Shown here piece after piece: positions 10,110-40,569 of a stretch of 64,000 bases of DNA. Under the pieces are notes generated by a model. It was not told the origin of the DNA. It saw only the letters and a list, made by a program, of their open reading frames with translations, and did not search any database. The stretch is from the sequence record OQ921332.1, one strand, 5' to 3'. A program made the position numbers and the translations under genes. Every line of letters begins with the position of its first letter. The stretch's first letter is position 1. Origin of the DNA: Escherichia phage vB_EcoP_PAS59.

Positions 10110-10185
10110 GCACCCTTAGCTCAATGGACAGAGCAGCGACCTTCTAAGTCGTTGGTTACAGGTTCGAATCCTGTAGGGTGCACCA
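10110..10185 (+). tRNA. tRNA-Arg (anticodon TCT)
   Basis: hand-folded cloverleaf: acceptor GCACCCT/AGGGTGC, D-arm GCTC..GAGC, anticodon loop CTTCTAA, T-arm ACAGG-TTCGAATC-CTGT, encoded CCA. Confidence 0.85.
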
Positions 10186-32754: not shown

Positions 32755-33075
32755 ATGATCAACGATAGTACATTTAGGACTGGTAACGGAAATGAAATCA
32801 GTCCTGCTGAAGTGATTAAACGACACAGAACACAGATGCTTATCCACTCCTATTTGTATTATTGGTTGGATGACCCAATCTGGTCTGACGATAAGTGGCA
32901 ACAAGTGGCTGATGACTTAACCACCTTGCAAGAGATGTATCCTGAGCCTATTGGATTCTTCGATTCAGAGTTCAATGGATGGAATGGCTCCACTGGTATG
33001 CATCTTCCTCATGACGAGCGTATAGCTTGTATGGCTACTGAAGTATACCGTTTACATAAGGACAAATCAATCTGA
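32755..33075 (+). CDS. hypothetical protein
   Basis: ORF track. Confidence 0.45.
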   Translation: MINDSTFRTGNGNEISPAEVIKRHRTQMLIHSYLYYWLDDPIWSDDKWQQVADDLTTLQEMYPEPIGFFDSEFNGWNGSTGMHLPHDERIACMATEVYRLHKDKSI

Positions 33076-33257
33076 AATGTTTTAAATGTGAATCAACTCT
33101 TCTCCATTTGGACTCGAAAGTAATACGGGAGCTTGCCAAAGGCTCCCCGACTAAAGGGAAGAATAAGAAGTTTGTCGAAATTAAGGTTATAGGTATCCAT
33201 TGCTCAGAGTGTAAATCCTGTAGCTTCTTATATGAAGAACACGGAGGTAGGAAATGA
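33072..33257 (+). CDS. candidate zinc-ribbon protein with no canonical start codon (CTG 33072 or ATC 33066 proposed)
   Basis: open frame 33060-33257 encodes CFKC...CSECKSC; stop overlaps the PhoH ATG; AAGGA 9 nt upstream of CTG. Confidence 0.3.
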   Translation: MKCFKCESTLLHLDSKVIRELAKGSPTKGKNKKFVEIKVIGIHCSECKSCSFLYEEHGGRK

Positions 33258-33991
33258 GTCGTAGAGAATCTCGGAAAGCATCACGGAGAGAATTACGTCG
33301 TGAAGCTCTCGTCACCAAGAAAGGAAAGCGGGAATTTGAAGAAGTAGTTCTTGCTAAGCCGGTAGTACCTCAGAACCAATTCCAGAGTGAGCTGCTTGAT
33401 GCAATTAAAACCAAACAGGTTGTATTCACAGATGCTCCTGCTGGCTGTGGTAAGACATTCGTAATCACTTCTACAGTGATCGATGCTCTGAAGAGTGGGA
33501 AGATTGAGAAGATTATCCTAAGCCGACCTGCTGTTGGTATGGGTAACAGTCTAGGATTACTTCCCGGTGGGCTTCGTGAGAAATTTGAACCATACCTGAT
33601 GCCAATTGTTGATGTTATCACTCAGCGTTATGGTAAAGGCTTCTATGAGTGTCAAATTGGTAATGGTAACATTGAGTTTGTACCTCTGGAATACCTCCGT
33701 GGCCGTTCATTCAACGATGCTATTGTGATTGTTGATGAGTTCCAGAATACCACTCCTGATGAAGCATATTCAATTATGACTCGTCTTGGTGAAACCTCTC
33801 AGATGTTCTGTATGGGGGACACCAATCAGCACGATATGCGTGGTGAGAGTGGTCTAGATTGGGCTACTGATTTCATATACCGTCACAAATTGTTTGAATT
33901 TGCCGCTCTAGTAGATGGTGAATCGGATGATATTGTTCGTTCAGGTTTCTGTAAAGCTATTGTCAAAGCAATGGAATCTGAAAAATCATAA
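33254..33991 (+). CDS. phoH: PhoH-like ATPase
   Basis: ORF track; Walker A AGCGKTF; Walker B VIVDEFQN. Confidence 0.8.
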   Translation: MSRRESRKASRRELRREALVTKKGKREFEEVVLAKPVVPQNQFQSELLDAIKTKQVVFTDAPAGCGKTFVITSTVIDALKSGKIEKIILSRPAVGMGNSLGLLPGGLREKFEPYLMPIVDVITQRYGKGFYECQIGNGNIEFVPLEYLRGRSFNDAIVIVDEFQNTTPDEAYSIMTRLGETSQMFCMGDTNQHDMRGESGLDWATDFIYRHKLFEFAALVDGESDDIVRSGFCKAIVKAMESEKS

Positions 33992-34409: not shown

Positions 34410-34661
34410 ATGTCTAAAGTAACTTATATCACTGTAACTGATTTCCTTCCTTCTCTGAACACAACTGAGAGTTATACTTTTCCTGTAGAAAATGTTACAA
34501 GCTCTGTTGAGATGATTCAGTTTAACAAAACAACAGCTCGTACTAATGTAACCCTTCGTGGCCCTGATGGCAAGTTCATCTCCTTCCGTGATAAGGGTGT
34601 TCCTAAGCGTATTGCTAAATCTATTGAAAATCTGAAACCTTTCCCCAACTTTGGTGCATAA
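34410..34661 (+). CDS. small protein (tandem paralog 1; KTARTNV...NLKPFP family)
   Basis: ORF track. Confidence 0.45.
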   Translation: MSKVTYITVTDFLPSLNTTESYTFPVENVTSSVEMIQFNKTTARTNVTLRGPDGKFISFRDKGVPKRIAKSIENLKPFPNFGA

Positions 34662-34662
34662 T

Positions 34663-34920
34663 ATGAAGATTAGCTTAATCCAAATTCGTGATCATCTCTT
34701 TAATGGTGACGCTCAGACTCATGACTACAAGGTTAATCAAGGACAACACCCTACCAATCACCTGATTGGAGGGATTTCTTTATTGCCTAATAAAACAGCA
34801 CGGACTAATGTAATGATTCGTGGTAAGGATGGTAAATTCCTCTCTTATCGTGACCCTGAAATCTGTGCTATTGTTCGTACAGCCATGAACAACCTAAAAC
34901 CATTCCCGACAGTGGAGTAA
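34663..34920 (+). CDS. small protein (tandem paralog 2)
   Basis: internal ATG of ORF track 34651..34920. Confidence 0.45.
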   Translation: MKISLIQIRDHLFNGDAQTHDYKVNQGQHPTNHLIGGISLLPNKTARTNVMIRGKDGKFLSYRDPEICAIVRTAMNNLKPFPTVE

Positions 34921-35274: not shown

Positions 35275-35290
35275 CTATAAGGAGTGGGTG

Positions 35291-37012
35291 ATGGATAACC
35301 CTGATAAGTTACCTTTCATAACGGAGATGACAGTCGCTGATATAATCTCAAAACAGGCGAAGCATGGAGTCAACTTCAACAGAAGAAACGCTCGGTGGTT
35401 TGTTCATCTTCTCAAAGAGATTATTGTCAATATTGATAAAGAACTGATTCCTCTCCTCCCCAAAATGCGGGTGGATGGTTCAACTTATTCTAAACCTTTT
35501 AAGAAATCAGGTGCTTTACAGAAGTGGCCTCAGCTCTATTGCGATAGGGTTGGTCTTAAAAGAGAAGATATCGGTGGGGCGTTTACTTGCGTTGAGTATG
35601 TAGATTTTGACCCATCAAAAGATGCACGTATTAAAGAAGCCTTGATGGATGAAGGTTTTATACCTCCAGAGTGGAATTATTCTAAGAAACCTTGGAATAC
35701 TTTTGAAATTCGTAAAGCTATGAAGAAGTATGGTACATACTCTGCATGGTATTCTGCTTGGATTCGAGGTAACGCTAAAGAGAAACAGACAGCAGAGATG
35801 ATAGATGCTGATATCCGAAGGTTTTTGGATAAGCACTTCCGTTATCACACTGTCAATTATATGAAAGCCTATGTCAGCGGTTTAGGTCTTAACCCTAACA
35901 GGAAGAAGCCTGTAACCTTTGATGAAATCAAAAAAGCTTTGGCTACATCAAACAAGTGGCCTACAGCCCCTACAAACCTTGAGGAGACTCTTGAAGAGGG
36001 GCTTGGGGGTGAACTAGGGGGTGTAGGAAGTTTGCTTAAGAGACGCGTTGTAGCGGCTCACAGGCTAGGTTTGATTAGCGGGCTTATCGACAAGGAACGT
36101 AAAGATGGTAAACTGTCCGCCGAAGCTAATAGCTGCGCTACTCCGACATTTCGTTTTAAACATCGCATTGTTGTTAATATTCCTTCTCGCGGTTTGTTTG
36201 GTCACGAGTGCCGCAGTCTTTTTCAATCTGACTATTCCTCAGACGATAGTCATAACCATCCTTTCATCATTACCAACCATATCCCTGATGGGTGTTACGT
36301 ACGAAAGGGTACTAACATTATCTACGAAATGGGAAAACCGGGCAAGAAAGACAAACCAATAGGTGCTTATAAATTTTATGTACCTGCTGGTCGTGAAGTC
36401 TTCTTAGGTTATGATGGCTCTGGTCTTGAGCTGAGGATGCTTGCTCATTACCTTATCAAAGAGTGTCGTGAGATGCTCGCTGAAGCAGAGCGGGAAAACA
36501 ACCCAGCTAAGAAACGGGAAGCTGAACGCGGTCTAGCTTCTGCTGTTATGTACAGAGATATTCTTTTAGAAGGGGATATTCACTCACATAACCAAAAACT
36601 TGCTGGCCTTCCTACTCGTGATAATGCTAAAACGTTTATCTACGCATTCAACTACGGAGCTGGTGACGCTAAGTTAGGAAGCATCGTAGGTGGTGGCTCT
36701 GATGAAGGGGCTGTCATGAGGGCAAGATTCTTAGCAGAGAATCCTTGTATTGCAATTCTTATTGAACGTATGACAGAGAAAGCACAAAGTGGATACATCT
36801 ACGGTGTGGATGGACGTCGTATTACAATGAGGAGGGATGCAACTGGAAAGGTTATGGTTCATAAAGCCTTAAACACCCTCTTACAGAGCGCTGGGGCGAT
36901 TGTTATGAAGTATGCAATGCTATTCCTTAATAAATGGATTGAGCGTGATGGTGTTCGTTGTGCGAAGGTTATTGACATGCATAAACTTCATTGTGCATGT
37001 AAAAGTTGGTGA
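35291..37012 (+). CDS. family-A DNA polymerase, polymerase domain (separate ORF, ~8.3 kb downstream of the exonuclease ORF)
   Basis: ORF track 35288..37012; motif A GYDGSGLELRMLAHY; motif B RDNAKTFIYAFNYGAG; NTLLQSAGA; collinear with T7 gp5 from about residue 200. Confidence 0.85.
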   Translation: MDNPDKLPFITEMTVADIISKQAKHGVNFNRRNARWFVHLLKEIIVNIDKELIPLLPKMRVDGSTYSKPFKKSGALQKWPQLYCDRVGLKREDIGGAFTCVEYVDFDPSKDARIKEALMDEGFIPPEWNYSKKPWNTFEIRKAMKKYGTYSAWYSAWIRGNAKEKQTAEMIDADIRRFLDKHFRYHTVNYMKAYVSGLGLNPNRKKPVTFDEIKKALATSNKWPTAPTNLEETLEEGLGGELGGVGSLLKRRVVAAHRLGLISGLIDKERKDGKLSAEANSCATPTFRFKHRIVVNIPSRGLFGHECRSLFQSDYSSDDSHNHPFIITNHIPDGCYVRKGTNIIYEMGKPGKKDKPIGAYKFYVPAGREVFLGYDGSGLELRMLAHYLIKECREMLAEAERENNPAKKREAERGLASAVMYRDILLEGDIHSHNQKLAGLPTRDNAKTFIYAFNYGAGDAKLGSIVGGGSDEGAVMRARFLAENPCIAILIERMTEKAQSGYIYGVDGRRITMRRDATGKVMVHKALNTLLQSAGAIVMKYAMLFLNKWIERDGVRCAKVIDMHKLHCACKSW

Positions 37013-37073
37013 ACTCGGTGAAACCCGACCATTAAGTTGAGGGCAATACCGAGCTAAGCTATTAGGAGGTGAT

Positions 37074-37469
37074 ATGGCTAAGAAAGATCTAGTGTTAGAA
37101 ACTACTGACACAGGATGTATCATCCCTATCTCACACAAACTTAATAAAGATGGTTACTTCAGAAAGGTAATAGATGGCAAATGGGTCATGTATCACCGAT
37201 ACGTCATGGAAGAAAAGTTTGGAAAGATTCCTGATGGGTTTGAAGTAAACCATAAATGCAAGAACAGAGCTTGCTGTAACACAGACCACCTAGAGATTCT
37301 ATGGGGGAGTGCTCATGCAATAGAATCCAATACAGGTAGAAACAGAGAAAGACAGGAAGCTGCTAAAGAATTCTGGCTTAATAATGAATGTACCGGTGTT
37401 GCTCTTGCGGAAAGATTTGGTGTGAGCTTTGGAATCGCTTGTAGATGGATTCGAAAGTGGAAAGTGTAG
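37074..37469 (+). CDS. HNH homing endonuclease inserted in the DNA polymerase gene
   Basis: ORF track; RBS AGGAGG; EVNHKCKNRACCNTDHLEILWGSAHAIESNTG. Confidence 0.75.
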   Translation: MAKKDLVLETTDTGCIIPISHKLNKDGYFRKVIDGKWVMYHRYVMEEKFGKIPDGFEVNHKCKNRACCNTDHLEILWGSAHAIESNTGRNRERQEAAKEFWLNNECTGVALAERFGVSFGIACRWIRKWKV

Positions 37470-37586
37470 AGACTATCCTTTGGGAGTAGGGGGTTAACAG
37501 GGAAACCCTCGAAGCGCCAACAACAGCAAATTAGCTATGCTGTTATGATATAGTCCGATACCCGAAGTAATTTGGGAATAACATAA

Positions 37587-37742
37587 ATGGATGAAGGTCA
37601 GTTCACTGTACATCGTGATGATGTTAACAAACTTCGTACCCTCACTGAAGAGTGTGTTCGTAAAGCAGGAGAGTACCTCAAGATGGAATGTCCTCTGGCA
37701 TCTGATTGCAAAATTGGATTAAACTGGAATCACACCCACTAA
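37587..37742 (+). CDS. DNA polymerase C-terminal segment (51 codons), separate mini-ORF or 3' exon
   Basis: translation MDEGQFTVHRDDVNKLRTLTEE...CKIGLNWNHTH aligns with the T7 gp5 C-terminus (...GKMGPNWAICH); in-frame TAA immediately precedes the ATG. Confidence 0.5.
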   Translation: MDEGQFTVHRDDVNKLRTLTEECVRKAGEYLKMECPLASDCKIGLNWNHTH

Positions 37743-37759
37743 TTTGTAGTGGAGGAATA

Positions 37760-37951
37760 ATGACTAGACATGTACATGAAACATGGGCCATTACGGGAGC
37801 AAAAGATGCAATTGTTTGCTGTAATGGACATTTCTGCATCTATAACACAGAAAGAAAAGCTATTCAAGAAGCGGCTGAGTTAATGGAAGAGTTTCCTGAT
37901 AAAGATTTCTCCATTAAGAATTTAACCATCAATCTCCCGTGGAAGAGCTGA
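37760..37951 (+). CDS. hypothetical small protein
   Basis: internal ATG of ORF track 37706..37951 behind GGAGG. Confidence 0.35.
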   Translation: MTRHVHETWAITGAKDAIVCCNGHFCIYNTERKAIQEAAELMEEFPDKDFSIKNLTINLPWKS

Positions 37952-39919: not shown

Positions 39920-40070
39920 ACGATATAAAGTCTGGCTAGATGAAGGAGCTGAGTATCCTGAAGGTTTTGGCTGGAAAGTTATTCTGGAAACAGATGATAT
40001 GGAGGAGGCTGAAACGAAAGCTGAATCTTTCAACTACTCATATTATGAGGACACATACGAGAATGGCTGA
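39903..40070 (+). CDS. small acidic protein (paralog of 39156..39335)
   Basis: internal ATG of ORF track 39885..40070. Confidence 0.4.
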   Translation: MVAQSKRYKVWLDEGAEYPEGFGWKVILETDDMEEAETKAESFNYSYYEDTYENG

Positions 40071-40569
40071 AGTTTATTTTGCAGGTGATGGTCACCTAGG
40101 CCATCGTAATATTTGTAACTTTAGAAAGAAGTTTAGTAGTATTGAAGAGCATGACAAAGCTATCTTAGCAGCGTTTGATCATGTTACTAAACGTGATAAA
40201 ACTTTCTTTACAGGTGACTGGGTGTTTGAGAAGTATGCACTTGATATTATCGCTGAAGTAAAAGGAGAGAAGCATCTTGTCTTAGGGAACCATGACAGAT
40301 TAGAACTTCTCCCTGATATGATGAAAGTCTTTAGACACATCAGTGGTGATTATAAGTACAAAGAGTTTTGGGTAACTCATATTCCTATTCACTCTGATGA
40401 AATGAGAGGAAAGTATAATATCTATGCTCATACTCATAATCATGTGATTGATGATTGGAGATACTTCTGTACTTCGATGGAACAAATCAACTTTAAAGCT
40501 GTATCTCTGCAAGAGATTAGGAAGACCTTTGATGAAAGAAGAAAAGAACAAAGTATCATCACTATTTAA
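40063..40569 (+). CDS. calcineurin-like metallophosphatase
   Basis: internal ATG of ORF track 39940..40569; motifs GDGHLGH, LGNHD, AHTHNH. Confidence 0.6.
   Translation: MAEVYFAGDGHLGHRNICNFRKKFSSIEEHDKAILAAFDHVTKRDKTFFTGDWVFEKYALDIIAEVKGEKHLVLGNHDRLELLPDMMKVFRHISGDYKYKEFWVTHIPIHSDEMRGKYNIYAHTHNHVIDDWRYFCTSMEQINFKAVSLQEIRKTFDERRKEQSIITI

Follow-up and report, generated by a model that had tools for sequence, protein, structure and literature searches.

Sequence evidence for a mobile group IA2 intron between the His and Asp-Glu codons of polymerase motif C in Escherichia phage vB_EcoP_PAS59

Escherichia phage vB_EcoP_PAS59 is a phiEco32-like coliphage (Gordonclarkvirinae, Suseptimavirus). In the 64,000-nucleotide (nt) stretch of its sequence record OQ921332.1 analysed here, which we call the window, the gene for a family-A DNA polymerase is laid out as three successive open reading frames (ORFs), and the insert that separates the first of these from the last is the subject of this analysis. 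Direct reading of the sequence places the polymerase ORF, which has a Pfam DNA_pol_A match, at 35288..37012 (+), with the C-terminal end ...AKVIDMHKLHCACKSW* and a TGA stop at 37010-37012. A 131-amino-acid (aa) HNH ORF preceded by AGGAGG comes next, and a 51-aa ORF at 37587..37742 (MDEGQFTVHRDD...NWNHTH*) begins directly after a TAA at 37584-37586. All parts of this layout, which had been described in a first-pass annotation made from the letters alone, are present in the sequence. The likely start codon of the polymerase is the ATG at 35291, and the ORF holds the polymerase domain only, with no exonuclease domains fused to it. Phages of this group encode the exonuclease domains by genes separate from the polymerase domain (PMC9965538), which explains why the ORF begins at the thumb/palm region.

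The insert is defined by comparison with phage EK010 (LC553734), in which the polymerase gene is uninterrupted. EK010, E20-1 and Bas86, all Suseptimavirus, are the closest genomes to the window, with 98.4% identity over the polymerase region. The EK010 gene matches the window without gaps over 36850-36982, to ...ATTGACATGCAT, and its next base corresponds to window position 37590 (GATGAAGG...); it is collinear with both flanks, and no base is duplicated or deleted at the insert. The insert, 607 nt in length, interrupts motif C in phase 0, with the His codon CAT on its 5' side and the Asp-Glu codons GAT GAA on its 3' side. The frame of the first exon meets a TGA 10 codons inside it, and the tail KLHCACKSW* is read-through into the insert and not polymerase sequence. 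When the exons are joined, they encode a 614-aa polymerase of which 611 residues are the same as in the EK010 enzyme, with the protein ...CAKVIDMH|DEGQFTVHRDDVNKL... across the junction (that is, ...VIDMH|DEGQFTVHRDD...). The corresponding ligated RNA junction predicted by an intron model is ...GACAUGCAU|GAUGAAGGU... (...AUGCAU|GAUGAA...). An intein was also considered for the insert and is ruled out, since it requires an in-frame insertion without stops and the insert has both the TGA stop and an HNH ORF with its own ribosome-binding site and start codon.

The comparison with EK010, together with a Pfam HNH_3 match, bears out the earlier placement of an HNH homing-endonuclease gene inside polymerase motif C. 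The first-pass annotation had also read the insertion as accompanied by a degenerate duplication of the motif C region, such that the functional motif C would be a variant H-R-D-D in the last ORF. This reading draws on a superficial likeness of both ...VIDMH... and ...FTVHRDD... to T7 ...AWVHDE.... In HMMER alignments, it is the MHDE of the spliced protein, not HRDD, that aligns with the VHDE of T7 gp5 and with the VHDE of the Klenow fragment, where chain residue 558 is the partner of query H41 and corresponds to His881 provided that the chain starts at residue 324. We take the Klenow VHDE to be His881-Asp882-Glu883 of E. coli Pol I, on the established numbering with this chain start. FTVHRDD aligns with T7 QVGCRTEE and Klenow FEVHKDD, which puts VHRDD on the VHKDD of Pol I, seven residues downstream of HDE. 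The earlier claim that AKVIDMH and FTVHRDD fall on the same T7 segment thus stands for the first of the two (as MHDE on VHDE) and fails for the second, which belongs downstream. Moreover, the uninterrupted EK010 polymerase holds both MHDE and VHRDD in one chain, and nothing in the window is duplicated relative to the EK010 DNA. We consider the duplication practically negligible as an explanation.

The alignments instead indicate that the insert interrupts a canonical motif C (MH|DE), which would be restored on exon ligation, and that HRDD is an ordinary downstream feature. The odd motif and the apparent duplication arose because unspliced DNA was read. Two further suggestions fall with them. 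The flanks had been called recoded, and EK010 matches the window at each of the 149 nt ahead of the insert and in the junction codons; HRDD had been considered a possible sequence error, and since EK010 has it too, no resequencing issue is indicated. The outcome that the first-pass annotation had itself set against a non-canonical motif, splicing that restores a canonical HDE, is what the sequence predicts.

The insert carries the elements of a group I ribozyme, which we checked base by base in the window (Table 1) and compared across 17 distinct homologous introns that were aligned after deletion of their ORFs. The 8-bp P1 ends with U36982·G36993, and this pair is U·G in 17/17 homologues. The exon and guide strands of P1 covary, being GUGCAU/GUGCAC in T7-like phages, where the exon encodes Val-His, and AUGCAU/GUGCAU in the window, where it encodes Met-His. 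P10 pairs CUUCAUU with GAUGAAG (37590-37596), the first seven bases of the second exon; it is 92.9% paired over the 17 sequences, with 2 pairs altered on both sides. There is no P2, AAAA alone lying between P1 and P3. P3 has compensatory changes in 6/7 pairs with 100% of cells paired, P6/P6a has 1 compensatory pair and is likewise 100% paired, and the P7 pair is invariant in all 17 sequences. In P8, which varies in sequence, a comparison of homologue L026 with phage PE006 gives a C-G to U-A double change. The base ahead of GAYGAR at the 3' end is G in all homologues. Subgroup IA2 is characterised by two additional helices, P7.1 and P7.2, which lie between P7 and P3' and are linked by G-U-A (PMC3428280). 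The window intron has both helices and the GUA linker, and these are conserved in all homologues.

Covariation over the same set supports the proposed structure as a whole. Its pairings hold in 95.6% of cells, a share that drops to 32-45% once the partners are slid; both members have changed in 16 pairs, and the observed covariation score was reached by 0/500 shuffles. RNAalifold independently yields P1, P3, P4, P5, P6, P6a, P7.1 and P9. The MAFFT alignment misaligns the variable P7.2 and P8, and each sequence was therefore folded separately between anchors; P7.2 and P8 are hairpins in every homologue, with unrelated stem sequences. Rfam comparisons point the same way. The Intron_gpI model (RF00028) matches the 3' core at 37470-37577 with 30.9 bits (E 6.8e-6 in an 801-nt search, 5e-4 over the whole window), and the P4-P6 region of the 5' half at 37015-37079 gives a weak match of 10.9 bits to model positions 60-139. 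At the same H|DE site, a homologue without an ORF (IMG/VR locus L034, 9330-9587) scores 61.2 bits, above the gathering threshold of 50, and other ORF-less relatives score 64-80 bits with the same model. At the gathering threshold, a search of the whole window returns tRNA only, and the intron appears only at E-value thresholds.

The ORF carried by the insert encodes a protein of the HNH type, with a Pfam HNH_3 match of 44.9 bits (E 9e-12; cutoff 24.8) and a match to PHROG 6254 'HNH endonuclease' at E 3e-41. The intron ORFs of phages 13a, K1F and Vp_R1 share 54-60% identity with it. H60, N69, H72 and H81 are invariant over 7 HNH homologues, and no conserved His, Asn or Cys position is lost. The ratio of non-synonymous to synonymous substitution rates (dN/dS) is 0.045 against PE006 and 0.10 against SU7, values at which the ORF is under strong purifying selection as judged from these comparisons. 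The gene is embedded in the ribozyme: its final codons form the 3' strands of P6a and P6, and its UAG stop lies one base ahead of P7, so that ORF translation and ribozyme-core folding would hinder each other. We further note a local hairpin at 37059..37082, AGCUAU-UAGGAGGUG-AUGGCU, with the Shine-Dalgarno sequence in its loop and the AUG in its stem. This hairpin is found in the window, SU7 and Vp_R1 types and not in all homologues, and a role for it at the HNH start codon is only tentatively proposed.

We conclude that the insert is very probably a mobile, self-splicing group IA2 intron that parts the motif C His from Asp-Glu in the family-A polymerase gene. Several points weigh against this conclusion. 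The window intron scores 30.9 bits with Rfam against a gathering threshold of 50, which we attribute to the 396-nt ORF that splits the ribozyme. P7 and several P4 pairs are invariant and hence uninformative for covariation. Next to the ORF, the assigned P6/P6a pairing comprises only 2 + 3 bp, and the local hairpin over the start codon is a competing fold. We infer actual splicing from homology and from sequence footprints. The likeness to the PhiI/W31 intron, discussed below, is drawn through homologues such as 13a and K1F and through the description given in PMC3428280. Finally, as to kinship with the nicking enzyme I-HmuI, a PDB sequence search with the HNH protein gave no meaningful match (best E 0.34), and a single-sequence AlphaFold model of it was unusable, with a mean pLDDT (predicted local distance difference test) of 43.9.

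The sub-threshold Rfam score, and the fact that splicing is deduced, could also suggest a decayed, splicing-dead relic, in which case the polymerase gene would be inactive or would be rescued by another polymerase or mechanism. The core helices are all intact, as are P10, the terminal G and the U·G at the splice site, and several viable phages that were isolated independently share a nearly identical core. The selection on the HNH ORF and the exons that match an intact polymerase at 611/614 residues speak against decay as well. We regard a relic as extremely unlikely.

A different view is that a free-standing HNH gene splits the polymerase, whose 574-aa and 51-aa pieces would be translated apart and assemble non-covalently, with no splicing involved. 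Public annotation appears to favour it, as the records of SU7, PE006, ECBP2, pEC-N1203-2Af.1 and FH3 each give two separate polymerase coding sequences (CDSs), none of them joined, along with an endonuclease; the FH3 pieces are annotated as hypothetical proteins, and the first CDS of SU7 overlaps a 'homing endonuclease'. The ATG at 37587, with a weak purine-rich stretch upstream, could serve as a start codon ahead of the second exon. Phage genes split by free-standing endonucleases are indeed known, and these, like genes broken by split inteins, have the same appearance in annotation of piece, endonuclease, piece (PMC2677866). Such genes are without a ribozyme, whereas the window has a conserved one: the non-coding flanks of the HNH gene bear every group I core element, covarying, and the guide sequence covaries with both exon edges. 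Under this view, the catalytic His|Asp-Glu triad would be shared by two chains. The ATG is simply the last three intron nucleotides, and T7-like homologues have AAG|GAT at that place, which leaves their second exon without a start codon. ORF-less versions of 225 nt at the same site are inexplicable by insertion of an endonuclease alone, and the T7-like introns are reported to splice (PMC3428280). In the records of 13a, K1F, JeanTinguely and Bas102, a 131-aa HNH gene is flanked by polymerase segments that are annotated as one joined CDS. We therefore consider a split gene very unlikely. The first-pass annotation had posed the choice between a group I intron and a free-standing endonuclease, and the full IA2 architecture found here resolves it for the intron.

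In the proposed mechanism, the polymerase pre-mRNA would fold as a ribozyme comprising P1 with its U·G pair, the P3/P7 pseudoknot, P4-P6, P7.1/P7.2, P8 and P9. Free guanosine would attack after U36982, and the first exon would then attack after the terminal G37589, with the register held by P10, to give a ligated mRNA that encodes one 614-aa polymerase with canonical ...MHDE.... The 131-aa HNH protein would be the homing endonuclease of the intron, its synthesis starting from a separate ribosome-binding site in the P6a loop. As to its cleavage site, chemistry and homing, we infer that, when relatives co-infect, it would most likely nick or cut their intron-less polymerase alleles close to the H|DE codons, and that recombinational repair would then copy the intron, along with some adjoining exon sequence, into the intron-less allele.

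The intron is distributed patchily among close relatives of the window. Within Gordonclarkvirinae it is found only in about seven related genomes (84-92% identity), with at least seven public genomes carrying it (SU7, ECBP2, PE006, pEC-N1203-2Af.1, 1-6af, 1-6bf and FH3). Introns of 66-73% nt identity occur in the T7-like phages 13a, K1F, JeanTinguely and Bas102 and also in Yersinia, Salmonella and Klebsiella phages; further homologues are present in Vibrio phage Vp_R1 and in an Aeromonas phage, and a pattern scan of IMG/VR adds 27 loci. The introns closest to that of the window, at 91.9%, are those of Kuravirus pEC-N1203-2Af.1 and PE006, yet the exons there are only 82.5% identical to those of the window. 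For SU7, a Suseptimavirus, the values are 84.7% for the intron and 92.8% for the exons. Over the 153 nt upstream of the insertion site, identity to EK010 and E20-1 is 99-100%. Relative to EK010, 11 differences fall in the 182 nt 3' of the intron, compared with 20 in the other 1813 nt (Fisher p 4.5e-5). No phage-collection record exceeds 94.1% identity to exon 2. The 3' cluster of substitutions is probably a one-sided co-conversion tract from an unsampled donor, and a nicking enzyme with strand specificity would be expected to leave such a one-sided 3' polarity.

The patchy distribution, the incongruent similarities of intron and exons and the 3' tract are signs of recent lateral homing. On balance, we lean towards a scenario in which one intron/endonuclease lineage has moved among three or more phage groups that are unrelated to one another, T7-like Autographiviridae, phiEco32-like Gordonclarkvirinae and Vibrio phage Vp_R1 (Grimontviridae), enabled by an HNH protein that would target the near-universal TGCAT|GAYGA, with the window copy representing a recent homing from a Kuravirus-like donor into Suseptimavirus that left a one-sided 3' tract of about 180 bp. 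The same intron core also occurs in ORF-less versions. They include the intron of about 225 nt at L034 9330-9587, in the same polymerase site, and those of L020, L023, L025, L030 and L038, which may lie in other genes since no GAYGAR follows their 3' ends. These relatives have a simple P6a hairpin where the window carries the HNH gene.

Other polymerase genes in the comparison have additional inserts. Two group I introns per polymerase gene are present in Aeromonas phage PT2 (27-249 and 691-1314) and in L034 (8689-8917 and 9330-9587), one at the H|DE site and the other upstream in each case. Nieuwekanaalvirus KBNP1711 (NC_023593) has its polymerase interrupted elsewhere (1657-2397), after about 455 aa, by an insert of about 840 nt that carries a 150-aa 'endonuclease' and scores 48.1 bits with Rfam Intron_gpI (E 3e-10), just below threshold. 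This insert probably marks a second, independent intron site in Gordonclarkvirinae polymerases.

The PhiI/W31 intron is the prototype of this type. According to Bonocora and Shub (2004), as cited in PMC3428280, it is a self-splicing IA2 intron with an HNH ORF in P6a, inserted at Pol I site 881. The window intron occupies the same point, after the motif C His, and 13a, K1F and others have the identical junction TGCAT|GAYGAR. The subgroup features are also common to both, namely the absence of P2 and the joining of P7.1 and P7.2 by GUA, and the ORF lies in P6a and has 131 aa in both, with its stop one base before P7 in all. Relative to the T7-like homologues, whose ORFs are 54-57% identical to that of the window at the aa level, the window intron has a P5 longer by about 9 nt and a shorter P7.2. 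Its guide sequence suits Met-His (AUGCAU) where the T7-like one suits Val-His (GUGCAU), and its HNH protein has Asn before the catalytic His where the T7-like type has Asp. The hosts differ too, the window being from a phiEco32-like podovirus of Gordonclarkvirinae with a polymerase lacking a fused exonuclease and the PhiI/W31 type belonging to Autographiviridae. On these sequence comparisons, the window intron is a member of the known PhiI/W31-type family in a new host lineage. The K1F element has been called a putative group I intron (PMC4925675). For Gordonclarkvirinae, none of the literature searched mentions an intron; 'homing endonuclease insertions' in the replication locus of these phages have been noted (PMC11990801).

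More distant parallels are found in other phages. T4 td, nrdB and sunY carry IA2 introns with an endonuclease ORF looped out from a peripheral helix, in conserved catalytic regions of genes for nucleotide metabolism or replication; their likeness to the window intron is one of description, and they differ in host gene and in having endonucleases of the GIY-YIG or other families. The Bacillus phages SPO1, SP82 and Bastille (I-HmuI and I-HmuII, as well as I-BasI) and cyanophage Pf-WMP3 (I-PfoP3I) likewise have group I introns with an HNH endonuclease in a family-A polymerase gene. The characterised enzymes of this group nick a single strand close to where the intron inserts, and homing co-converts the flanks (PMC3428280). 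These introns differ from the window intron in occupying another site (Pol I position 674, in the finger subdomain) and in encoding larger, different endonucleases of 161-174 aa, and the PDB search with the window HNH protein detected no sequence similarity to these elements.

Several other genes were assigned in the window (Table 1, last rows). Just upstream of the polymerase, two small ORFs at 34410..34661 and 34651..34920 are adjacent and slightly overlapping. They are paralogous (36% identity, E 8e-15), having in common ARTNV-RG-DGKF-S-RD ... NLKPFP, and neither has a Pfam match; by their similarity, the pair is a tandem duplication of an unknown gene. A tRNA gene lies at 10110..10182 (+), with an Rfam score of 73.2 bits.

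Table 1. Features of the polymerase locus and of neighbouring genes in the window, with the pairing or evidence behind each assignment.
Feature	Position	Strand	Pairing or evidence
Polymerase exon 1	35288..36982	+	Last codon is the motif C His CAT; gapless alignment to intron-less EK010; Pfam DNA_pol_A
Putative group IA2 intron	36983..37589	+	Exact insertion relative to EK010; partial Rfam RF00028 matches; ORF-less homologue above gathering threshold; covariation
P1 5' strand (exon), ACAUGCAU	36975..36982	+	8 bp with internal guide sequence GUGCAUGU; U36982 is the predicted 5' splice-site U
Internal guide sequence	36986..37000	+	CUUCAUU 36986-36992 forms P10 with exon 2 start; GUGCAUGU 36993-37000 forms P1 with exon 1 end
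P3 5' strand GUUGGUG	37005..37011	+	Pairs with CGCCAAC 37515-37521
P4-P5 domain	37014..37053	+	P4 CUCGGU/ACCGAG, J4/5 GAAA, P5 hairpin 37024-37043, J5/4 CAAU; weak Rfam match
P6 and P6a 5' strands (CU..CUA)	37054..37061	+	Partners UGG 37458-37460 and AG 37463-37464; ORF inside P6a loop
Shine-Dalgarno AGGAGG of endonuclease gene	37064..37069	+	Precedes ATG 37074
HNH homing-endonuclease gene, 131 aa	37074..37469	+	Pfam HNH_3; PHROG 6254; homology to intron ORFs
P7 5' strand GACUAU (R element GUAGAGACUAU)	37471..37476	+	Pairs with AUAGUC 37550-37555; fits Rfam consensus
P7.1, linker and P7.2	37477..37510	+	CC-UUUG-GG 37477-37484; A-GUA 37485-37488; P7.2 hairpin 37489-37510
P3 3' strand CGCCAAC	37515..37521	+	Makes P3/P7 pseudoknot
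P8 hairpin AACAGCA...UGCUGUU	37522..37544	+	Kept in all homologues
J8/7 and P7 3' strand (S element AUGAUAUAGUCC)	37545..37555	+	Rfam alignment and 17-sequence pairing test
P9 hairpin CCCGAA-GUAA-UUUGGG	37561..37576	+	4/6 pairs compensatory, 100% paired
Terminal G (omega-G)	37589..37589	+	Last intron nucleotide; EK010 boundary
Polymerase exon 2	37590..37742	+	DEGQFTVHRDD...NWNHTH*; EK010, T7 gp5 and Klenow alignments
Probable co-conversion tract	37590..37771	+	11 substitutions relative to EK010; all 10 in exon 2 synonymous
Stand-alone NAD+-ligase N-terminal (Nlig-Ia) domain protein	32755..33075		
PhoH-like ATPase	33254..33991		
T4 Y13H-family protein	37760..37951		
Metallophosphatase	39940..40569		

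The main value of these results is corrective, in that the 'variant motif C' and the 'split polymerase' would both be products of an unspliced reading, and the public annotation of these genes is corrected accordingly. No new mechanism is revealed. The incongruent relations of intron and exons, the ORF-less derivatives and the probable one-sided co-conversion tract together offer a clean natural example of intron mobility, which may be of use for the study of homing driven by HNH nickases in coliphages under development for therapy. With this element in a phiEco32-like phage, the hosts known for the PhiI/W31-type polymerase intron would no longer be confined to T7-like phages.

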